Shown here: positions 4,555-56,911 of the stretch, piece after piece
Layout of the letters: each line of letters opens with the position of its first letter
Position numbering within the stretch: position 1 is the stretch's first letter
Origin: Candidatus Omnitrophota bacterium
GTDB lineage: Bacteria; Omnitrophota; Gorgyraeia; Gygaellales; Profunditerraquicolaceae
Reading direction: 5' to 3'
Assembly (NCBI GenBank): GCA_025453395.1
Contig: JALOQK010000008.1
Coordinates: 938-64,937, forward strand
Length of the DNA: 64,000 bases
The notes under the pieces: model-generated
Seen by the model: only the letters and a program-made list of their open reading frames with translations
Told to the model about the DNA's origin: nothing
The model's database searches: none
Translations under genes and position numbers: made by a program

Positions 4555-6261
4555 TTATTCGTCAGCTACGGTAACCCTGACAACCTCTTCAATAGTAGTA
4601 AGCCCTCTTAGGGCTGAGTCTATGCCTTCTTCGCGTAAAGTCCTCATCCCCTCTTTCCTGGCTTGATCTTTAATCTGATATTCTTGAGCATGAGAAAGGA
4701 TCATATCCCGTATTTTAACGCTTAAGATAATGACTTCCGCGATAGCAACTCTGCCGCTATAACCAGTATTAAAACATAACGGACATTTCTTGGGGCGGTA
4801 AAATTCACTTTTACTTTTATCTAATTTTAATGCCTCTGCTATTTCCGGGCTTAATGTATATTTTTCTTTACAGTTGGAACAGATCTTACGCACCAACCTT
4901 TGCGCCACAATACCCACCACCGCCGAATTAATCAAGAATGGCTCTACTCCCATATTGATCAGGCGCACAATTGATCCAGCCGCAGTAGTAGTATGCAAAG
5001 TAGAAATAACCAAGTGCCCGGTCAAGGCGCTTTTTATGGCGATGTCCACTGTCTCATAATCACGGATCTCGCCGATCATGATAATGTTAGGGTCTTGCCT
5101 GAGGATTGCGCGCAGGGAACTGGCGAAAGTAAGGCCAATGTCGGGCTTAATGGTCACCTGATTTATCCCATCGAGCTGAAACTCAACCGGATCCTCAACA
5201 GTAACAATGTTTTTATGCGGATCATCCACAAATTTAAGTATGGAATAAAGAGTGGTAGTTTTTCCGCTTCCCGTGGGCCCGGTGACCAAAAACATTCCAT
5301 GCGGCATCTTTGAAGCTTGTTGGATCTTAGTAACATTATTATCAGAAAATCCCAATTTTGCTAAATCCAAGTTGGCTTGGGATTTATCAAGGATACGCAA
5401 TGCCACTTTCTCGCCAAAGCTTGAAGGAATAATGGAAACACGAAAATCTATTTCTCTTCCTGATATGCGCGCCTTAAAACGTCCATCCTGCGGCAGGCGG
5501 TGCTCAGCGATATTAAGATCTGACATGACCTTAACGCGTGAGACTATGGAAGCATGCATGTTAGCCGGGGGCGACTGTTGTTCCTGAAGAACACCGTCAA
5601 TACGAAAACGGACGCGCATTTTCTTGTCCCAAGGCTCGATCAAAATATCTGAAGATTTCTTCTTAACAGCGTCTTCAAGGATAAGATTGGTTACTCTTAT
5701 AACCGGCACTTCGCGGCTGACCCGGGTTAACTCCTGTTCGCTGGGTTGGTTTTCTTTCTCCTCTTTAATAAGTTCAATCCCGGGGACATTTATCTCCTTG
5801 ACCAAATCCTCCATCTCGTCTTTTGTAACATTGGGATAATACAGCTCTATAGCGGCAATAATATCCTGCATCCCGGAAATAATAGGATTAATATTATACC
5901 CGGTCAGGGATTTTACATGGTCAATAGCAAAAATATTCAAAGGATCAACCATAGCCAAAGTAATAGTCTGGCCTATTTTAGAAACGGCTATGATCTGATA
6001 ATGACGGGCGATTTCTACGGGGATTATTCTAGCTGTAGCGGGATCGATCTTAAAACGTTTTAAATCAATAAGCGGCAGGCCCAACCCCTGGCTTAGGATA
6101 GAAACCAAATCCTGTTCCTTGATAAAACCTAAAGAGACAACAATATCGCTTAAGCGGCCTGCCTTTTCCTTCTGGATAGCAATAGCCTTATCCAATTGCT
6201 CGGAAGACAAAAGCTTACTATTAACCAACACTTCTTTAAGACGGTCCTTTAAGGAAAGCAT
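4555..6261 (-). CDS. Second PilB/GspE-family ATPase (tandem paralog) with MshEN-type N-domain
   Basis: 568 aa. MshEN motifs (LKEVLVNSKLLSSEQLDKAIAIQ / RLSDIVVSLGFIKEQDLVSILSQ). Walker A GPTGSGKTT. C-terminal CSNCK...CPLCFNTG zinc motif. Confidence 0.9.
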   Translation of the reverse strand: MLSLKDRLKEVLVNSKLLSSEQLDKAIAIQKEKAGRLSDIVVSLGFIKEQDLVSILSQGLGLPLIDLKRFKIDPATARIIPVEIARHYQIIAVSKIGQTITLAMVDPLNIFAIDHVKSLTGYNINPIISGMQDIIAAIELYYPNVTKDEMEDLVKEINVPGIELIKEEKENQPSEQELTRVSREVPVIRVTNLILEDAVKKKSSDILIEPWDKKMRVRFRIDGVLQEQQSPPANMHASIVSRVKVMSDLNIAEHRLPQDGRFKARISGREIDFRVSIIPSSFGEKVALRILDKSQANLDLAKLGFSDNNVTKIQQASKMPHGMFLVTGPTGSGKTTTLYSILKFVDDPHKNIVTVEDPVEFQLDGINQVTIKPDIGLTFASSLRAILRQDPNIIMIGEIRDYETVDIAIKSALTGHLVISTLHTTTAAGSIVRLINMGVEPFLINSAVVGIVAQRLVRKICSNCKEKYTLSPEIAEALKLDKSKSEFYRPKKCPLCFNTGYSGRVAIAEVIILSVKIRDMILSHAQEYQIKDQARKEGMRTLREEGIDSALRGLTTIEEVVRVTVADE

Positions 6262-47151: not shown

Positions 47152-49992
<2,841 letters not shown>

Positions 49993-50021
49993 GGGCTTAT
50001 TCTGGTGAGATGATTTTAAAA

Positions 50022-50094
50022 TCGGGGGAGTGGGACTTGAACCCACGGCCTCAGCGTCCCGAACGCTGCGCTCTACCAAGCTGAGCCACCCCCC
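50022..50094 (-). tRNA. tRNA-Pro (anticodon CGG)
   Basis: rc reads CGGGGGGTGGCTCAGCTTGGTAGAGCGCAGCGTTCGGGACGCTGAGGCCGTGGGTTCAAGTCCCACTCCCCCGA. Cloverleaf with a 7-bp acceptor stem, GTTCAAGTC T-loop and anticodon loop TTCGGGA. Confidence 0.9.
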
Positions 50095-50120
50095 GTTATT
50101 TTCCGAAATTTAACTTTACA

Positions 50121-50157: not shown

Positions 50158-50724
50158 TTAGACAACGCCATGCATGTCGAATTCCAAATTAACTTTATCT
50201 GAAGGCCCCTTAAAAGACAAGGTGGTATTTTTAAGGGTATGCGGGATAATATAAACAAAAAGGGAATTTGAAAGCTTCTGCATTATAGTCAGGCTTATTC
50301 CATCCACGGCAATAGAACCTTTAGGAGAAACATACTTAATGAATTGCTGAGGAAAGAAAATCTGGAAGAAAGTATTTCCTTCGCGTATGCCTTTCTTGCG
50401 GATAAGCCCTTCACAATGGACATGGCCATTTACTAAATGCCCGGAAACCCTGTCGCCAAATTTAAGCGCCTTTTCCAAGTTCACCTTATCCAAAGGCCTT
50501 AAACTCTTAAGATTGCTATCCTTTAATGTCTGCGGCATTGCCTCAAAAGAAAGCATTTTATCTTTTTGCCCCACCAAAGTAAGGCATACTCCATTGACCG
50601 CTATGCTGTCCCCGAGATTAAGGCCTTCAGTAATCTTAGAAGCGATAATTTGGATAAGCGTAACATTGCCCCGGCGGGAAATAAGATGGACGCTTCCTAA
50701 TTCTTCCACAATTCCGCTAAACAT
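50158..50724 (-). CDS. ribE: Riboflavin synthase alpha subunit (B. subtilis RibE nomenclature)
   Basis: 188 aa. N-terminus MFSGIVEELG and internal duplicated lumazine-binding halves. Confidence 0.9.
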   Translation of the reverse strand: MFSGIVEELGSVHLISRRGNVTLIQIIASKITEGLNLGDSIAVNGVCLTLVGQKDKMLSFEAMPQTLKDSNLKSLRPLDKVNLEKALKFGDRVSGHLVNGHVHCEGLIRKKGIREGNTFFQIFFPQQFIKYVSPKGSIAVDGISLTIMQKLSNSLFVYIIPHTLKNTTLSFKGPSDKVNLEFDMHGVV

Positions 50725-51808
50725 AGGCCTGAAAGAGAAAATCTTCCCCTATTTTATTCACCGTTACATCTTTTAATTTAAAAGCGCTCTGCACTTTTTC
50801 TATGCCTTTGCCCATGACTGAAGAGATTGCCTCTTTCCCCCCGATAATCTTGGGGCTGGTAAAAAACATGATCTTATCCACCAGCTTCTCGTCAAAAAGA
50901 GACCCCACCAATGTGCCTCCGCCCTCTACAAGAATGTTAGTTATCTGAAGCCGGGCCAATTTCTTCAAAGCATCCCTTAAATTCACCTGCCCATTCTGGG
51001 ATTCTTTAACCTCAAGAATCCTCGCCTTAGAAGAAAGATCGCCTCTGTTCTGAGTTTCTTGAGCCGGCTTAACCGGCAGAGTAACAATAATCACTTCGCT
51101 TTTCTTTTTAAAAATATTGGCACCGGGTGGAGTGCTTAACTGACTGTCCACAATAATCTTTTTTAGTTCTTTCTGGGAAAACCAGGGGTCAAGATAAGGA
51201 TTATCCCTTAATACGGTATTAACCCCCACCATGATCGCGTCAAAACCGGCCCTTTTCTGATGGGCAAAAGCGCGAGAACGGTCAGATGTAATCCATTTAG
51301 AATCTCCCGTACGCGTGGCAATCTTTCCGTCTAAAGACTGGGCGATCTTAACAGTAATAAAAGGCACATTCCTGGTAATATATTTAATGAAAACTTCATT
51401 CAATTTTCTCAATTCGTCTTCCATTACTCCAACTTCTACTTTTATCCCATTCTGCTTTAAGATTTCCACTCCCCTTGTATTATTCAATGGGTTTGGATCG
51501 ATCATCCCCACAACAACTTTCTTTATCTTGCTTCTTATGATCGCCTCAATACAAGGAGGAGTCCTGCCGTAATGCGCGCAAGGCTCTAAAGTAACATACA
51601 AACAAGCACCTTCTGCCTTGCTGCCCGCCTGCTCTAAAGCCATAACTTCAGCATGGACACTACCAGCTTTCTTATGATAACCGGTTGCGACTATTTTTCC
51701 GTGCTTTACCAAAACAGCCCCCACCATAGGATTAGGGCTAGTCTTACCCTTGCCTTTTAAAGCAAGCTTCATCGCTTGACGCATATAATACTGATTATTC
51801 TTATTCAT
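50717..51808 (-). CDS. ribD: Bifunctional diaminohydroxyphosphoribosylaminopyrimidine deaminase / 5-amino-6-(5-phosphoribosylamino)uracil reductase
   Basis: 363 aa. Deaminase zinc motifs HAEVMAL and LEPCAHYGRTPPC. C-terminal reductase domain. Confidence 0.92.
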   Translation of the reverse strand: MNKNNQYYMRQAMKLALKGKGKTSPNPMVGAVLVKHGKIVATGYHKKAGSVHAEVMALEQAGSKAEGACLYVTLEPCAHYGRTPPCIEAIIRSKIKKVVVGMIDPNPLNNTRGVEILKQNGIKVEVGVMEDELRKLNEVFIKYITRNVPFITVKIAQSLDGKIATRTGDSKWITSDRSRAFAHQKRAGFDAIMVGVNTVLRDNPYLDPWFSQKELKKIIVDSQLSTPPGANIFKKKSEVIIVTLPVKPAQETQNRGDLSSKARILEVKESQNGQVNLRDALKKLARLQITNILVEGGGTLVGSLFDEKLVDKIMFFTSPKIIGGKEAISSVMGKGIEKVQSAFKLKDVTVNKIGEDFLFQAYV

Positions 51809-52625
51809 TTATTTTCCTGGCTTGTTTTAATTTCTCTACTAACTCATAGGGGATCTTTGCCTGCCCGATTTTCACATCCGGCTTGGCTTTACCATGATAA
51901 TCAGAACCACCGGTAACTAAAAGCTTATACTTATCCGCCATCTCAAGATAATATTGCGTAAGAACAAAATTGTGCTCCGGATAATAAACTTCTAAACCCT
52001 GCAAACCGTAACCGACAAACTCTTCAATAAGCTTGTCGTTTCTTAATAGATAAGGGTGCGCCAATACCGCGATGCCTCCAAAATCCTTGATAAATTTTAT
52101 CGCCTCAATAATAGTAAAACGAAAACCACAGACATAGGCCGGGCCATTATCTCCGATATATTTCTGAAACGCCTCTTGGGTTGTCTTGATCAAGCCCTTT
52201 GCAAACATCGCCCGCGCGACATGCAATCTGCCTACTGTGCCCTCACCGCCAATATCAAAGACATCTTTAGGATCTAAATCCACTCCTATATTCTTTAGCT
52301 TAGAGCAGATTTTATATACGCGTTCTTGGCGGATAGTCTTCAAGGATTCGAGTTTATCTTGAAAACTTTTCGATAAATAATCAATAAAATAACCCAACAA
52401 ATGAACCTCTATCCCGCCATGATCAACGCTAAGCTCTATCCCCGGGATAACTTCCAAGCCCTGCTGTTGGGCGTAAAAGCTGGCGGCAAGCAATCCCGAA
52501 ACAGTATCATGGTCAGTAATCGAAATAGCCGCGAGATTTGTCTTTTTTACTTTAGCAATAAGCTGTTCGGGCTCAACTGTGCCATCGGAAAAAGTAGTAT
52601 GCAGATGCAGATCGGCAAAACTCAT
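51801..52625 (-). CDS. PHP-family (histidinol-phosphatase-like) metal-dependent phosphoesterase embedded in the rib operon
   Basis: 274 aa. N-terminal DLHLHTTFSDG and downstream ITDHD motifs of the PHP domain. 4-8 nt overlaps with nusB and ribD. Confidence 0.8.
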   Translation of the reverse strand: MSFADLHLHTTFSDGTVEPEQLIAKVKKTNLAAISITDHDTVSGLLAASFYAQQQGLEVIPGIELSVDHGGIEVHLLGYFIDYLSKSFQDKLESLKTIRQERVYKICSKLKNIGVDLDPKDVFDIGGEGTVGRLHVARAMFAKGLIKTTQEAFQKYIGDNGPAYVCGFRFTIIEAIKFIKDFGGIAVLAHPYLLRNDKLIEEFVGYGLQGLEVYYPEHNFVLTQYYLEMADKYKLLVTGGSDYHGKAKPDVKIGQAKIPYELVEKLKQARKINE

Positions 52626-53047
52626 AAATCCTTGATGTGTTTTTGTTTTTCCTGCTTGATTTTATCAACAATGCCGTTTACAAACTTTCCGGATTCAGGC
52701 GCGGAGAATTTCTTGGCTAAATCCACAGCTTCATTGATAGCAACCTTAGGCGGAATATCATCGCAAAACATCAATTCATAGCAGCTCAAGCGCAGGACGT
52801 TCCTATCCACCACCGCCATTCTATCCAGCCTCCAGTTAGTGGCATATTGCGAAATGATCTTATCAAGAGCTTCCTTATGGTCAAGCACGCCCTGAACTAA
52901 CTGATTAGCAAAACTCTGCGAAACCTGCTCTACATCTTCACGGCTAGACCAGAAGTCAGGCATAGTCTTATCATCAAACTGGCCTGTTATGTCAATCTGA
53001 TATAAAATCTGCAGAGCGCATTCCCGCGCTAATGTGCGTTTACGCAT
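52622..53047 (-). CDS. nusB: Transcription antitermination factor NusB
   Basis: 141 aa. RECALQILYQ N-terminus. Position after ribH as in many bacteria. Confidence 0.9.
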   Translation of the reverse strand: MRKRTLARECALQILYQIDITGQFDDKTMPDFWSSREDVEQVSQSFANQLVQGVLDHKEALDKIISQYATNWRLDRMAVVDRNVLRLSCYELMFCDDIPPKVAINEAVDLAKKFSAPESGKFVNGIVDKIKQEKQKHIKDL

Positions 53048-53049
53048 TT

Positions 53050-53514
53050 TTAGATTTTCTCCATGATGTTTGCCATCTCTATAGCGCTTATGGCAGCGTC
53101 TTTACCTTTATTGCCGTCTTTGGTGCCAGCGCGTTCAATAGCCTGTTCAATTGTATCAGCGGTAATCACCCCAAAAATAACCGGCAAACCTGCATCTAAA
53201 GAAACCTTGGCTGTGCCTTTTGAAACTTCCGCAGCCACATAATCGAAATGCGGAGTAGAACCGCGTATTACTGTGCCTAAACAGATAAGCGCGTCGTAGG
53301 TTTTAGATTCAGCCATTTTTGATGCTACTAAAGGCAACTCAAATGCCCCCGGCGCCCAAACCAATGTTATATCTTTCTCGTCAGCTCCATGCCTTACCAA
53401 AGTATCAATACAGCCAGCAACCAATTGCTTAGTCACAAAATCATTAAACCGCGAAGCAATGAGCGCGAATTTCTTTTGTTTTGCGATTAAGTTTCCCTCT
53501 ATTGTTTTTACCAT
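53050..53514 (-). CDS. ribH: 6,7-dimethyl-8-ribityllumazine synthase
   Basis: 154 aa. [16 protein letters not shown] and [14 protein letters not shown] motifs. GGAGGA Shine-Dalgarno upstream. Confidence 0.92.
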
Positions 53515-53535
53515 GTTTCCTCCTTTTTTTTATCA

Positions 53536-53696
53536 ACTAAATATATAATCCCAATAACCAATGACCAAATCTCAATCACCAAATAAATTCCAATAATCAA
53601 TAACCAATTTACCAAACAGGTTTGGTAAATTGGGCAATTGGTAATTGGTTATTGTTTGATTATTGGTGCTTGATAATTGGTTATTAATCATATGAA
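53536..53696. repeat. Long imperfect palindrome built from CCAAT/ATTGG units between ribBA and ribH
   Basis: Arms ...ccaataatcaataaccaatttaccaaac / gtttggtaaattgggcaattggtaattggttattgtttgattattgg centred on ccaaacaggtttgg (53612-53625). Confidence 0.5.
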
Positions 53697-53719
53697 CTAT
53701 TGATATTTATGCCCACTAT

Positions 53720-54931
53720 TCACCTTATATCTAAATGATGACCCATCTTCTCTTTTTTAGTCTTAAGATACCTGTAATTAACATTGTTAGGCTCTATCTC
53801 TATGGGAAGCCGCTCAACAACTTTAAGCCCATACCCTTCAAGCCCTACTATCTTGCGTGGATTATTGGTCATAAGACGGATATTCTTTATTCCTAAATCC
53901 ACCAAAATCTGCGCCCCAATGCCATAGTCGCGTAAGTCCGGCTTAAAACCTAAAGCCTGATTTGCCTCTACTGTATCAAGGCCTTTATCCTGAAGCGCGT
54001 AGGCGCGGATTTTCTCTACCAAACCAATGCCTCTGCCCTCCTGATTCATGTATAAGATGACACCTTTTTTCTCTTTTTCAATAAGCTGCATGGCTTTTTT
54101 AAGCTGCCTGCCGCAGTCACAACGTAAAGATGAAAAAACATCCCCGGTTAAACATTCTGAATGCACCCTGACTAAAACATTTTCATTGCCAAATTCACCC
54201 ATAGCCAAGACTGTATGCACCTGATTATTCACCAAATCTTTATACAGAATAAGCTTATAAGTACCGTATTCGGTTGGGACATCTGTTTCTGCAACCCGCT
54301 TAATTAATTTTTCATAACGCCTGCGGTACTGAATTAAATCTGCGATGGAACATATTCTTAGGTTATGCCTAGAGGCAAATTCCTTCAACTGAGGCAATCT
54401 TGCCATAGTGCCGTCTTCATTCATGATCTCGCAAATAACCCCGGCCGGATACAAGCCAGCGAGTTTAGCTAAATCCACGCAAGCTTCAGTATGGCCAGAA
54501 CGCACCAAGACCCCGCCCTTCTGCGCCCTTAAGGGAAACAAATGGCCCGGACGGATCAAATCTTCCGGCAAAGACTGCGGATTAATCAACACTTCTATTG
54601 TATGTGCGCGGTCATGCGCTGAAATGCCAGTGGCAATCCCTCTGGAAGCATCCACAGAAACCATCCAAGCGGTAGAAAATTTGTCTTTGTGGAAAGAAAT
54701 GTTTTTATCCATAAACATAGGCCCTAAATTAAGCGCGCTAAGCCTTTCTTCTTCCATGGGCACGCAAATAAGGCCTCTGCCGAATTTAGCCATAAAATTA
54801 ATGTGTTCGGCCTTAACAAAAGAGGCAGCCATCAAAAGGTCGCCTTCGTTCTCGCGGGATTCATCATCCACGACTACGACCATTTTGCCGTTTTTTAAGT
54901 CTTCTAAGATTTCTGGAATTGAGTTAAACAT
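53720..54931 (-). CDS. ribBA: Bifunctional 3,4-dihydroxy-2-butanone-4-phosphate synthase / GTP cyclohydrolase II
   Basis: 403 aa. DHBP synthase N-half (RENEGDL) and GTP cyclohydrolase II C-half with CxxC zinc ligands ([20 protein letters not shown]). Confidence 0.92.
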
Positions 54932-55011
54932 AGTTTAGCTGGATATAGTCTAATTTTTTTACATTGTTTCTGATTATACCCGGCGCAACTTGATGCGCCG
55001 GTATGTTGTCT

Positions 55012-55048
55012 TCTACAACAAAAGGCCCGAAGAACATTCTCTTCGGGC
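55012..55048 (-). terminator. Intrinsic terminator of the FMN riboswitch expression platform
   Basis: Minus-strand hairpin GCCCGAAGA-gaatgt-TCTTCGGGC (9-bp stem) followed by CUUUUGUUGU. Confidence 0.5.
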
Positions 55049-55065
55049 GAATAGATATTACTATT

Positions 55066-55376
55066 AATCATCTTCTCTCATCTGGACTTTGCGCAGATAG
55101 CGCACGCCGATCCTTAAAATAGGATCGGGCGACGCCTACTATGCGTGCCTGGCTACCCCCAATTCAATTTGATGAATTGGGGTGCCTTTTCTAGGCTACC
55201 ATCGGTACTGGAATTACACCAGTTCATGCCTGTTTAAGGCTTGCGGACTGTTACACCCGGCGCAATTTGATGCGCCGGTGTGCGCTTGCCTAAGCTACAC
55301 CCGGCGCAATTTGATGCGCCGGTGTGCGCTTGCTGCGCTACCGCCGGTCGGGAATTTCACCCTGCCCTGAAGATTA
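55066..55376 (-). ncRNA. FMN riboswitch (RFN element) in the ribBA leader, with an expanded variable region
   Basis: The 5' part reads CTTCAGGGCAGGGTGAAATTCCCGACCGGCGGTAG and the 3' part AAGTCCAGATGAGAGAAGATGAT, the conserved aptamer termini. It is upstream of the rib operon and followed by a terminator. Confidence 0.75.
55252..55333. repeat. Tandem direct duplication (2 x 38 nt, 44-nt period) of a hairpin element inside the riboswitch, with a third diverged copy at 54977-55003
   Basis: tacacccggcgcaatttgatgcgccggtgtgcgcttgc occurs perfectly at 55252-55289 and 55296-55333. Each copy contains the hairpin ccggcgca-atttga-tgcgccgg. Confidence 0.85.
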
Positions 55377-55382
55377 AGCTTT

Positions 55383-55410
55383 ATTATATAGGTAAAAGTA
55401 TCCTTGTCAA
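55383..55410 (-). promoter_or_regulatory. Sigma70 promoter driving the FMN riboswitch / rib operon
   Basis: Minus strand reads TTGACA-N16-TATAAT. The aptamer begins ~8 nt downstream of the predicted TSS. Confidence 0.5.
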
Positions 55411-55440: not shown

Positions 55441-55905
55441 ATGGAAACCATTGCCAAACAAATACATACGCTGCTGATTAAGAATAAAAAGACTGTTGCT
55501 GTGGCTGAATCCTGCACTGGAGGATACACCTGCATGCTTCTCACTCAATTTCCAGGCAGTTCTGCTTATTTCTTAGCTGGGATAGTAGCCTATCACAATA
55601 GCTCTAAAACAAAACTATTGGGTATTTCCAAAGAGATCTTAAAAAAACACGGGGCGGTAAGCGCCATTGTAGCAAGAAAAATGGCTGAGCATATCCGTAA
55701 AACTACCGGCGCAAACTTAAGCATCGGAATAACCGGCATTGCCGGCCCATCTGGAGCAACAAAAAATAAACCCATAGGAACAGTATTTATCGGCTTGTCA
55801 GGAAAAAGGCAAATTGTTAAAAGATTTCTATTGCGCGGCACAAGAATGGATATACAGAAAAAAACTGCTTTAAAAGCCTTGCAACTATTAAAAAAAATAA
55901 TATGA
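55441..55905 (+). CDS. pncC: CinA C-terminal-domain protein / NMN amidohydrolase PncC
   Basis: 154 aa. VAVAESCTGG motif and GIAGPSGAT region are typical of the CinA C-domain. Confidence 0.8.
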   Translation: METIAKQIHTLLIKNKKTVAVAESCTGGYTCMLLTQFPGSSAYFLAGIVAYHNSSKTKLLGISKEILKKHGAVSAIVARKMAEHIRKTTGANLSIGITGIAGPSGATKNKPIGTVFIGLSGKRQIVKRFLLRGTRMDIQKKTALKALQLLKKII

Positions 55906-56474
55906 GGGCCTTTATCGCTATAGAACTTGACCTTGCAGCAAAGAAAAAAATATCTTCCCTGCAGCAAGAACTAAAAAACCTGTCTTGCGATGTAAAGTGG
56001 GTTGATAGCGACAACCTGCATTTAACCTTAAAGTTTCTTGGGCAGGTCCCAGAAGAACAAACAGATCAAATCTGTTCTGTGCTGGAGAAGATGGCAAAAG
56101 AAAAAACGCCCTACTCTATTGCCCTTGATTGCATAGGAGCATTTCCAAACCCCAGAAACCCTAAAGTAATCTGGGTGGGAACTAGAAAGCAAAATCAACA
56201 AACACAGAATATATTCAATCAAATAGAAGAGGATTTAAGCCATCTGGGGATACCGAGAGAGGAAAAAGATTTCTCTTGCCACATAACTCTGGGCAGATCA
56301 AGAAATACGCTTAAATGCCAAAGGATTGCCTCAGGCGTAGAGAAACTGGATAAGAAAATACTTGAAAACCCTATTGAATTTACAGTGCAGAAAATAACTC
56401 TTTTTGAAAGCAAGCTCTCAAAGGAGGGGCCGGCTTACCGACAGCTTAAAGCAGCCCACCTTAAAACTGCCTGA
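55902..56474 (+). CDS. thpR: RNA 2',3'-cyclic phosphodiesterase (2'-5' RNA ligase family, ThpR/LigT)
   Basis: 190 aa. Two H-x-T-x motifs (HLTLKFLG and HITLGR). Confidence 0.85.
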   Translation: MRAFIAIELDLAAKKKISSLQQELKNLSCDVKWVDSDNLHLTLKFLGQVPEEQTDQICSVLEKMAKEKTPYSIALDCIGAFPNPRNPKVIWVGTRKQNQQTQNIFNQIEEDLSHLGIPREEKDFSCHITLGRSRNTLKCQRIASGVEKLDKKILENPIEFTVQKITLFESKLSKEGPAYRQLKAAHLKTA

Positions 56475-56911
56475 AGAATCATATTAGTGTAAAAGGCGGC
56501 CACTAAATCATCCGCCACAATCCCCCATCCTGCTTTTGCCGACTGAACAAGATACCCCGGATAGGGCTTAATAGTATCCATGGCCCTGAACAAAATAAAA
56601 GCCATCAGGATTACTTTTACGCTGTAACACGGCAGCAAAGCTAACGCAAGAAGCATCCCAAGGACTTCATCTATCACAACTGCCCCGGGGTCTTTCTTAT
56701 GGAAAAGCCTCTCCGCGCTTTTCCCTAGAGCTACTCCTAAAACAGCTAACAATAAAACCAAAGAAAAATATATGGCCGGGCTTGATTTAACCAATAAAAA
56801 CAAAAATATCCCCGCGATACTGGCGAATGTCCCTGGAGCTGCCGGAAGATAACCAATATAAAAGAATGTAACAATAACCTCAACCAATTTATTTTTAAAG
56901 CGCATTTGCAT
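56435..56911 (-). CDS. pgpA: Phosphatidylglycerophosphatase A
   Basis: 158 aa membrane protein. FFYIGYLPAAPGTFASIAG is the PgpA signature. Convergent 40-nt overlap with thpR. Confidence 0.85.
   Translation of the reverse strand: MQMRFKNKLVEVIVTFFYIGYLPAAPGTFASIAGIFLFLLVKSSPAIYFSLVLLLAVLGVALGKSAERLFHKKDPGAVVIDEVLGMLLALALLPCYSVKVILMAFILFRAMDTIKPYPGYLVQSAKAGWGIVADDLVAAFYTNMILQAVLRWAALSCR

Follow-up and report, generated by a model that had tools for sequence, protein, structure and literature searches.

The PHP-domain gene in the riboflavin operon of the Omnitrophota bacterium studied here (positions 51801..52625, minus strand, of the window, i.e. of the whole stretch of 64,000 nucleotides that was analysed) encodes a member of the TrpH/YciV (COG0613) family, to which the RNase AM of Escherichia coli and the pAp phosphatase Cv1693 of Chromobacterium violaceum belong. 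The protein is probably a pAp phosphatase and/or an RNase AM-type 5'→3' exo(oligo)ribonuclease that has NusB, rather than the enzymes of riboflavin biosynthesis, as its partner. Since it belongs to the RNase AM/pAp-phosphatase family and its gene travels with nusB, a role in the processing of RNA ends is more likely than the one proposed in the preliminary description, namely that of the missing phosphatase for 5-amino-6-ribitylamino-2,4-pyrimidinedione 5'-phosphate (ARPP). A tempting candidate for that elusive enzyme is thus largely taken out of riboflavin biochemistry, and guilt by association is an unsafe guide inside the rib-nusB supercluster.

The operon runs on the minus strand in the order FMN riboswitch-ribBA-ribH-nusB-PHP-ribD-ribE, its genes being identified by Pfam and NCBIfam profile searches. 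The gene ribBA (DHBP synthase/GTP cyclohydrolase II; 53720..54931; NF006803, 600 bits) is followed by an AT-rich, repeat-laden spacer of 205 nt (53515..53719), ribH (lumazine synthase; 53050..53514; TIGR00114), nusB (transcription antitermination factor; 52622..53047; TIGR01951, 151.9 bits against a cut-off of 88.35), the PHP gene itself (ATG start, 274 residues; PF02811 as the sole Pfam match, E 1.2e-13), ribD (deaminase/reductase; 50717..51808; TIGR00326) and ribE (riboflavin synthase; 50158..50724; NF006767). The PHP gene is thus a real gene inside a riboflavin operon, with the gene order and the overlaps of 4–8 nt already described for it; the spacer that parts ribBA from ribH had been missed. 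As read from the sequence, nusB and the PHP gene overlap by 4 nt (ATGA) and the PHP gene and ribD by 8 nt (ATGAATAA), ribD and ribE also overlap by 8 nt, and ribH and nusB are 2 nt apart. The PHP gene is translationally coupled within the riboswitch-led operon. The six-gene order was found again in about 25 independent contigs of the Omnitrophota type, so the arrangement is not due to chance, and the 8-nt overlap of the PHP gene with ribD is kept across Omnitrophota. Directly after ribE there is a gene for tRNA-Pro(CGG) (50022..50095, minus strand), and three relatives (L001–L003) likewise have a tRNA gene at this place.

The FMN riboswitch assumed for the operon is indeed present (RF00050; 55180..55378, minus strand, i.e. 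read from 55378 to 55180). Its match of 54.6 bits (E 1.4e-11, model positions 1–138) stays below the Rfam gathering score of 66.2 because of an insertion of 87 nt, which consists of two tandem hairpin units in a variable loop of the aptamer. In the predicted fold these hairpins form units of their own, the aptamer core is of full length and sits at the orthologous site 5' of ribBA, and uninterrupted aptamers of 76–103 bits are found at the equivalent position in four relatives (L001, L002, L004 and L028). The aptamer is flanked upstream by a promoter-like site of the sigma-70 type (TTGACA-16-TATAAT, 12/12 matches; 55383..55410, minus strand) and downstream by a terminator-like hairpin with a U-run (10-bp stem, tail CTTTTGTTGT; 55025..55048, minus strand), which is the probable expression platform. 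The promoter-like site is a match to the consensus only and its presumed function follows from its position; overall, promoter-like matches are no commoner here than in shuffled sequence. An internal promoter uncoupling nusB-PHP from the riboswitch was sought in the 205-nt spacer, where only weak hexamers (9/12 matches) were found together with a 13-bp hairpin. The spacer measures 15–240 nt among the relatives, some having only 15–50 nt, and it might hold an internal promoter or be a site of processing.

The best NCBIfam matches of the PHP protein are the 3',5'-nucleoside bisphosphate phosphatase (NF041577) with 182.4 bits and RNase RNM (NF047791) with 153.2 bits, both far under the respective equivalog cut-offs of at least 400 and at least 375 bits, so that the protein can be classed as a member of the wider family only, and not as an equivalog of either characterised enzyme. 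Sequence searches against the PDB retrieved 3e0f, 2yb1 (Cv1693) and the RNase AM structures 9etk and 7ug9 with E-values from 6e-32 to 7e-23. In agreement with this, the AlphaFold2 model (pLDDT 91.3) was matched by Foldseek to 9etk (TM 0.84), 3e0f (0.83) and 2yb1 (0.83), the range being 0.82–0.84 and the E-values about 1e-23; the next-best folds, the PHP domains of DNA polymerase III, reach a TM of 0.5 at most. The earlier wording "histidinol-phosphatase-like" has to be abandoned: the HisJ profile TIGR01856 gives 19.5 bits against a cut-off of 90.2, covering residues 5–46 only, around the N-terminal HxH motif, and no HisJ structure occurs among the 36 Foldseek matches with E ≤1e-3. Superfamily and three-metal chemistry are common to HisJ-type phosphatases and the window protein; HisJ, however, lacks the insertion lobe that carries the arginine triad described below. 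A phosphoribosyl cyclic-phosphate diesterase (NF041661) was likewise rejected, as the score is 101 against 500 bits and phn genes are absent from the vicinity. A search of plasmids added nothing.

Alignment of the PHP protein with the characterised enzymes demonstrated that all nine metal ligands (His7, His9, Asp14, His39, Glu64, His75, His190, Asp242 and His244) correspond to those of E. coli RNase AM (His13, His15, Asp20, His45, Glu72, His83, His198, Asp255 and His257). Furthermore, the triad Arg99/Arg102/Arg133 and Phe153 correspond to Arg107/Arg110/Arg141 and Phe161 of the E. coli enzyme and to Arg99, Arg102, Arg134 and Phe154 of Cv1693, which contact AMP/phosphate. In E. coli the three arginines bury the 5'-phosphate of the substrate, and the phenylalanine stacks (PMC9410882, PMC11528712; the residue roles in Cv1693 are taken from the same two sources). 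The nine ligands, the triad and Phe153 are invariant in the alignment of 121 relatives, both rib-linked and rib-unlinked. Judged by these residues, the active site of this metal-dependent phosphoesterase is intact. It differs from its characterised homologues in having AHPYLL where the enzymes of E. coli, C. violaceum and Vibrio cholerae have AHPGRY, and thus Arg201 of E. coli RNase AM (within HPGRY), which contacts the scissile phosphate by a salt bridge, has no counterpart in it. Lysine or arginine is found at position 248, in a conserved HGxxK, in 99 of the 121 sequences of the subgroup, and may substitute for Arg201.

Of the enzymes already described, RNase AM (YciV/TrpH/Rnm; from E. coli, V. 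cholerae and Pseudomonas aeruginosa) has in common with the window protein the PHP barrel with its insertion lobe, and its metal ligands, arginine triad and stacking phenylalanine are identical; the role of RNase AM in rRNA maturation is also consistent with a partnership between the window gene and NusB. Sequence identity is nevertheless only 22–31%, the window protein has GY after His75 and HGxxK after the last ligand, unlike RNase AM, and the genomic contexts differ, being nusB/rib/ftsY in the one case and trp-yciO in the other. Cv1693 (E 4.5e-29, 28% identity) shows the same loop differences. The closest solved sequence is Bad1165 from Bifidobacterium adolescentis (3e0f/3o0f, "putative metal-dependent phosphoesterase"; E 6e-32, 29% identity), which shares the subgroup motif GGSDxHGKxKP with the window protein, and for which we found no published function and know of no nusB or rib context. 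No published kinetics were found for subgroup members of the Bad1165, Firmicutes or PVC type.

The genomic neighbourhood was compared in 120 related loci. These had been sampled by their similarity to the window PHP protein and are not independent of one another phylogenetically; independent events are therefore fewer than any of the counts suggests. On the same strand, NusB is found upstream of the PHP gene more often than any other neighbour (57/106 loci), nusB adjoins the PHP gene in 56 of 99 loci, and the downstream neighbours are FtsY in 32 loci and RibD in 25. The PHP clade thus does co-occur with rib genes elsewhere, ribD lying immediately 3' of the PHP gene in 22 of the 84 testable loci, but the two neighbours are not equally constant: where both sides of the PHP gene could be tested, it adjoins nusB alone in 24 loci and ribD alone in 2. 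Of the 26 nusB-adjacent loci, 20 have ribD within 5 kb, as against none of the 25 others. In loci of the Verrucomicrobia type, ftsY stands between the PHP gene and ribD, with ribD-ribE 1–3 kb downstream, and no FMN element was found there. The nusB-PHP pair is a conserved unit in PVC-related phyla, and in Omnitrophota, Verrucomicrobiota and Planctomycetota no gene accompanies nusB more constantly than that of the RNase AM family. Two loci from a deep lineage (L030 and L033) have the order NYN-trpS-PHP-ribD-recJ-acpS, in which the 8-nt overlap is kept and neither nusB nor other rib genes are nearby. The relatives from Firmicutes and Xenobia are located in recA-rny(RNase Y)-ymdB-spoVS clusters, and the linkage to RNase Y and ymdB in Firmicutes is an independent pointer to RNA processing and not to sulfur or CoA metabolism. 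The presence of nusB among rib genes is in itself ordinary, because in E. coli it lies in the cluster ribD-ribE-nusB-thiL-pgpA; the linkage of ribH with nusB is ancient and older than the divergence of these phyla.

The two genes are even joined into one in anammox Planctomycetota. About 50 protein clusters of 422–461 residues from Scalindua, Kuenenia, Brocadia and relatives, each having up to 208 members and lying on contigs of up to 2.9 Mb, combine PF01029 and PF02811 in the order NusB-linker-PHP, with a linker of 15–40 residues and with all catalytic and pocket residues intact. These fusion proteins, e.g. those from Ca. Scalindua japonica (P0250) and Ca. Kuenenia (P0262), are 43–46% identical to the window NusB plus PHP over 96–100% of the length. 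The domain order equals the gene order in the window, and ribH is immediately upstream; the fusion, however, is a single polypeptide followed by ftsY, whereas in the window two separate genes are followed by ribD. The genes for the fusion have ribH on one side and ftsY on the other, and gene calling over 8 kb of flanking sequence in each direction gave no ribBA, ribD or ribE. Four metagenome loci likewise carry in-frame NusB-PHP fusions. With a chimeric query, no PHP-RibD fusion was seen among the best 120 matches, although the many matches to single RibD proteins could mask one of less than about 45% identity. The NusB-PHP fusion was not mentioned in the literature searched.

It was against this background that the proposal of an ARPP phosphatase was weighed, according to which the PHP enzyme, as a dedicated or moonlighting phosphatase, would remove the 5'-phosphate from the product of RibD in Omnitrophota and perhaps in Verrucomicrobiota. 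Part of it stands, namely the embedding in the operon, the intact active site and the co-occurrence with rib genes: the PHP gene overlaps ribD, whose product makes ARPP, by 8 nt behind an FMN riboswitch, RibD is directly downstream in 25 loci, the PHP-ribD pair persists without nusB in the deep lineage, and ribD-ribE are not far away in the Verrucomicrobia-type loci. PHP enzymes of the HisJ type hydrolyse primary-alcohol phosphomonoesters at their trinuclear centre, so the chemistry would be within reach. The ARPP step is furthermore catalysed by unrelated folds in different organisms, i.e. the HAD enzymes YigB/YbjI in E. coli, YcsE/YwtE/YitU in Bacillus subtilis and PyrP2 in Arabidopsis, as well as AaHFP (histidine phosphatase) and an IMPase in Aquifex aeolicus, and most bacteria lack a known dedicated enzyme for it (PMC12051542, PMC13151069). 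All of these are metal- or acid-base-type phosphohydrolases like the window protein, but their folds are unrelated to it and none is of the PHP type (PMC13151069). No PHP-family ARPP phosphatase is known in the literature (PMC13151069, PMC12051542), so that such a role would be new; our literature searches turned up no relevant link of PHP or COG0613 proteins to riboflavin or ARPP, and the Aquifex phosphatase screen mentions no PHP protein. What speaks against the proposal is, above all, the protein itself. It is of the TrpH/YciV family and not of the HisJ type, and ARPP has one phosphate and cannot fill the second-phosphate pocket, yet the arginine triad and the base-stacking phenylalanine are invariant. 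In the alignment of 121 sequences, Leu134 (proline elsewhere) is the only residue specific to the ribD-adjacent clade, at a position that varies also among the characterised enzymes, and no other specificity-shift residue was found; in the tree, this clade is nested among rib-unlinked orthologues and has no long branch. The context argues in the same direction: NusB is the more constant partner and the one to which PHP is fused, the anammox bacteria have ribH-[NusB-PHP]-ftsY and no ribD, ftsY is inserted before ribD in Verrucomicrobia, and in the conserved E. coli cluster thiL and pgpA likewise accompany rib genes to which they are functionally unrelated. The proposal is therefore considered improbable. 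The complementation of a yigB/ybjI-type mutant that had been suggested would be a weak test, because strains deleted for the known HAD phosphatases do not become riboflavin auxotrophs (PMC13151069).

A plain housekeeping enzyme, having no mechanistic tie to NusB, is somewhat easier to accept, although it too is rather unlikely. Such an enzyme would clear the 3',5'-ADP arising from holo-ACP synthase and PAPS-dependent reactions, or would cleave short 5'-phosphorylated oligonucleotides at the end of RNA decay, and the linkage and fusion to nusB would reflect the mere co-expression of housekeeping genes related to growth rate. The activities characterised in the family, i.e. hydrolysis of pAp (Cv1693; NF041577 being the best match) and diribonuclease activity (PMC11528712), would fit; acpS, a source of pAp, is located two genes downstream in L033, and ftsY, a housekeeping gene without a known tie to NusB, is also part of the conserved cluster. 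Co-expression alone, however, hardly explains a stable fusion with a conserved linker throughout the order Brocadiales, with clusters of up to 208 members, and the RNase Y-ymdB context in Firmicutes speaks for RNA processing. Least probable is a flavin-linked RNA role, in which the removal of FAD caps under the control of the FMN riboswitch would free FAD or tune the stability of capped RNA when flavins are scarce. It would suit the position of the PHP gene downstream of the riboswitch, and E. coli RNase AM sets FAD free in intact form from RNA capped with it in vitro and influences the level of such caps in vivo; FAD caps are, however, rare (PMC9410882). The riboswitch control is moreover confined to the Omnitrophota arrangement, the FAD obtained from caps would be negligible compared with de novo synthesis, and this reading is purely inferential.

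In the preferred reading, that of a NusB-linked enzyme of RNA ends, the three-metal centre would cut the phosphoester 3' of the nucleotide whose 5'-phosphate sits in the arginine pocket. Family, fold, active site with 5'-phosphate pocket, synteny and fusion are established by the present analysis; the actual substrates and any physical cooperation with NusB are inferred. The enzyme would work at the 5' ends of those RNAs that the NusB/BoxA complex of rRNA antitermination deals with, either trimming the 5' ends of pre-rRNA or clearing excised leader fragments, and it would be found in the riboflavin operon only owing to the old linkage of nusB and ribH. In E. coli, the 5'-end maturation of 5S, 16S and 23S rRNA by RNase AM (PMC7261194, PMC10250234) is in accordance with this. 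Several observations count against it: the NCBIfam scores below the cut-offs, the lack of a counterpart of Arg201, the conserved 8-nt overlap with ribD, the FMN riboswitch upstream and the deep-lineage loci that keep PHP-ribD without nusB, as well as the absence of a linkage between yciV and nusB in E. coli.

Coupling of 5'-end maturation or leader clearance to rRNA antitermination is thus offered as a testable hypothesis. In its strongest form, which we put forward tentatively and with some doubt, an RNase AM-type 5'-phosphate-dependent exonuclease/phosphoesterase would be a dedicated partner of NusB in PVC-related bacteria, recruited together with NusB/NusE to BoxA on the nascent pre-rRNA, where, during transcription, it would shorten 5' ends or degrade the leader once excised. 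If true, the enzyme would represent a nuclease arm of the rRNA antitermination complex; we know of no nuclease counted among the components of the rrnTAC. Work on the RNase AM family has, to our knowledge, been confined to Proteobacteria until now, and the preferred reading also suggests what the uncharacterised Bad1165-like subgroup may do. In Omnitrophota, the NusB-nuclease module of the strongest form would be additionally wired behind an FMN riboswitch.

The riboflavin cluster lies on the minus strand of the window and, as judged from ORF calls with Pfam and NCBIfam assignments, comprises ribBA (54931..53720), ribH (53514..53050), nusB (53047..52622), the gene of the PHP-domain protein (52625..51801), ribD (51808..50717) and ribE (50724..50158). 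As read from the sequence, nusB overlaps the PHP gene by ATGA, and both the PHP/ribD and ribD/ribE junctions overlap by 8 nt. Upstream of ribBA there are a promoter-like site (TTGACA-16-TATAAT, a perfect match) and a terminator-like hairpin with an FMN aptamer between them. This aptamer scores 54.6 bits (E 1.4e-11) and is missed at the Rfam gathering threshold of 66.2 because 87 nt are inserted in its variable loop; relatives carry uninterrupted aptamers of 76-103 bits at the same position. Both the operon order and the riboswitch of the preliminary description are correct according to the ORFs, Pfam/NCBIfam, Rfam and the relatives' aptamers. The compact layout with an FMN riboswitch at its head suggests co-transcription of nusB and the PHP gene with the rib genes in Omnitrophota.

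The PHP protein is 100% identical to the NCBI entry 'MAG: PHP domain-containing protein'. It had been regarded as histidinol-phosphatase-like, an identity ruled out by its score of 19.5 bits with the HisJ model (cut-off 90.2). The top NCBIfam models, 3',5'-nucleoside bisphosphate phosphatase and RNase RNM/AM, score 182 and 153 bits and remain short of their equivalog cut-offs (400 and 375). Solved sequence relatives (E 6e-32 to 7e-23) are Bad1165 of Bifidobacterium adolescentis (3e0f), the pAp phosphatase Cv1693 of Chromobacterium violaceum (2yb1) and RNase AM of V. cholerae (9etk) and E. coli (7ug9). The AF2 model (pLDDT 91.3) superposes on these structures with TM 0.82-0.84, the next-best folds, PHP domains of Pol III, giving TM <=0.5 only. 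From profile scores, solved relatives and superposition, the protein is therefore placed in the TrpH/YciV (COG0613) family, a known one to which it adds a new member from a new context. It belongs to the Bad1165/Firmicutes/PVC subgroup, which, in contrast to the proteobacterial RNase AM and Cv1693, lacks the 'GR' after the H190-P191 motif and has 'HGxxK' after the last ligand.

In RNase AM and Cv1693 the 3'-O-linked phosphate is attacked by three metals, which nine His/Asp/Glu residues coordinate; three arginines bury the 5'-phosphate of the nucleotide, whose base stacks against a strictly conserved phenylalanine (PMC9410882, PMC11528712). Alignment demonstrated that the metal ligands (H7, H9, D14, H39, E64, H75, H190, D242 and H244), the arginines (R99, R102 and R133) and the stacking F153 are all present in the window protein. 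The gene product is an intact phosphoesterase with a trinuclear metal centre; it belongs to the RNase AM/pAp-phosphatase family and preserves the pocket for the nucleotide 5'-phosphate. Ligands, arginine triad and phenylalanine do not vary across 121 sequences, irrespective of whether the neighbouring gene is ribD, ftsY, that of RNase Y or another. The sole residue specific to the ribD-adjacent clade as against rib-unlinked relatives is L134 (proline elsewhere), a position that varies among the characterised enzymes too. In the neighbour-joining tree the rib-linked proteins nest beside those of Verrucomicrobia and then of Firmicutes, with no long branch.

Gene neighbourhoods were compared in 41 loci from species-representative genomes and 80 from metagenomes, the six operon proteins being placed by tblastn; because the loci were selected for their resemblance to the window protein and lack independence, the counts describe the PVC-related clade rather than the whole family. 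The full ribBA-ribH-nusB-PHP-ribD-ribE order recurs in Omnitrophota (e.g. L001, L002, L004, L005, L028, L042-L054 and L122). In Verrucomicrobia-type loci nusB-PHP-ftsY is followed after 1-3 kb by ribD-ribE, and an FMN element was not found; a third type reads ribH-nusB-PHP-ftsY. Two Chlamydia-like loci (L037 and L040; 4750-7970) have nusB-murB-PHP followed by a Mur-ligase/FolC-like gene, and a deep Omnitrophota lineage (L030/L033) has trpS-PHP-ribD-recJ-acpS without nusB. The same-strand upstream neighbour is NusB at 57 of 106 loci, and the downstream one is FtsY at 32 and RibD at 25 of 89. Among 73 loci testable on both sides, nusB and ribD are both adjacent in 15, nusB only in 24, ribD only in 2 and neither in 32. 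Where the downstream sequence extends for 5 kb or more, ribD lies within 5 kb in 20/26 nusB-adjacent loci versus 0/25 others. The predicted co-occurrence of this PHP clade with rib genes is thus real in two phyla by these locus counts; the association comes along with nusB, which is the stickier partner. In Firmicutes and one Xenobia MAG the gene lies in or adjoins a recA-rny(RNase Y)-ymdB-spoVS cluster (L011-L015, L019, L024 and L039, Syntrophomonadaceae; L017, L018 and L020, Selenomonadaceae, directly 3' of ymdB; L036, Xenobia), which ties the gene to RNA processing independently.

To separate the candidate partners, two chimeric queries, PHP+RibD and NusB+PHP, were searched against a collection of 5.8 billion proteins. 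The best 120 matches of the former contained single RibD proteins only and no fusion. The latter retrieved about 50 clusters (up to 208 member sequences, contigs up to 2.9 Mb) of 422-461-aa proteins with both PF01029 and PF02811. These proteins, from Candidatus Scalindua, Kuenenia, Brocadia and other Brocadiales (anammox Planctomycetota), align to 96-100% of the query with 42-47% identity. They consist of a complete NusB, a linker of 15-40 residues and a PHP domain with all catalytic and pocket residues intact in the alignment, and NCBI labels them only 'transcription antitermination factor NusB'. The fusion genes (L125:8001-9317 and L126:8001-9269) have ribH upstream and ftsY downstream, with no ribD or ribE within 8 kb; four metagenome loci (L055, L061, L062 and L063) also carry in-frame nusB-PHP fusions. 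The PHP gene and nusB form a genetically coupled pair, which in one order has become a fusion. A stable fusion across a bacterial order is a classical sign of shared function, and with NusB as the partner it points to a function shared with NusB. This partnership and fusion, the more interesting outcome of the analysis, was not mentioned in the literature searched.

The PHP gene in the rib operon is a real and well-conserved feature, and the linkage to rib genes stands, but its reading as the phosphatase of ARPP (5-amino-6-ribitylamino-2,4-pyrimidinedione 5'-phosphate, the product of RibD) is improbable. ARPP carries a single phosphate, which the metals would have to bind, whereas the second-phosphate pocket is strictly kept; this argues that the selected substrate is a 5'-phosphorylated nucleotide or RNA end. 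The fusion partner is NusB, with which the rib linkage comes. For an ARPP phosphatase speak the conserved 8-nt PHP/ribD overlap, persisting in L030/L033 without nusB, the missed equivalog cut-offs and the absence of an arginine equivalent to E. coli R201, which contacts the scissile phosphate. A fourth fold would also not be absurd, since the ARPP phosphatases known so far belong to three unrelated folds, none of them PHP (PMC12051542, PMC13151069). Genomic position by itself gives weak support for a riboflavin role, because genes of unrelated function ride in the rib-nusB cluster: pgpA lies close to rib and nusB in the window, recalling the E. coli nusB-thiL-pgpA cluster (nrdR-ribD-ribE-nusB-thiL-pgpA in K-12), and nusB after the lumazine synthase gene is an old, widespread arrangement. 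The PHP protein is probably not the missing riboflavin enzyme.

We somewhat favour an RNase AM-type enzyme that would hydrolyse the 3'-phosphoester of 5'-phosphorylated nucleotides, by pAp hydrolysis and/or stepwise 5'->3' nucleotide removal from 5'-monophosphorylated RNA, its substrates presumably being RNAs associated with the NusB/NusE-BoxA antitermination complex. Such a role fits that of E. coli RNase AM in 5'-end maturation of all three rRNAs (PMC7261194, PMC10250234). That the enzyme is a nuclease tethered by NusB is a tentative proposal. It is rather unlikely to be simply a housekeeping pAp phosphatase or nanoRNase whose mechanism does not involve NusB. A link to flavin caps, suggested by the deFADding activity of RNase AM (PMC9410882), is very improbable.

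A '23S rRNA intervening sequence protein' gene (PF05635) lies between nusB and the PHP gene in two Verrucomicrobia-type metagenome loci (L091:6561-6962 and L101). In Lentisphaerae/Kiritimatiellia (L021, L025 and L029; about 5600-6000) a PTPS/QueD gene is immediately upstream of the PHP gene; several of the contexts have a connection with GTP-derived cofactor pathways, perhaps by coincidence.

The neighbourhood of the operon, including pgpA, is syntenic in relatives, e.g. L122. Divergent from the rib operon are CinA (55441-55905) and a LigT/ThpR 2',3'-cyclic phosphodiesterase (55902-56474), followed by PgpA (56435-56911, minus strand). Directly after ribE (49717-50095 region) lies tRNA-Pro(CGG), with a tRNA gene in the same place in L001-L003. 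It is overlapped by a listed 120-aa TTG ORF (49717-50079), where the true gene is probably a 90-aa acylphosphatase (PF00708) starting at 49989.

The ribBA-ribH spacer (53515-53719; 205 nt, 15-240 nt in relatives) is AT-rich, with CCAAT/ACCAA-type direct repeats and nested inverted repeats, among them a perfect 14-nt palindrome at 53604-53633, and could hide an internal promoter; it may also act as an attenuator or be a site of processing. In the leader (54975-55333, minus-strand RNA) the hairpin CCGGCGCA-AYTTGA-TGCGCCGG occurs in three copies (54980-55001, 55257-55278 and 55301-55322), matched in 0/100 shuffles, with a variant of the same loop at 55157-55182 and no further copies elsewhere in the 64 kb. 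The 87-nt aptamer insertion consists of two perfect tandem copies with a 44-nt period and the third copy comes after the terminator; the element could be a small mobile palindrome or a protein-binding hairpin.
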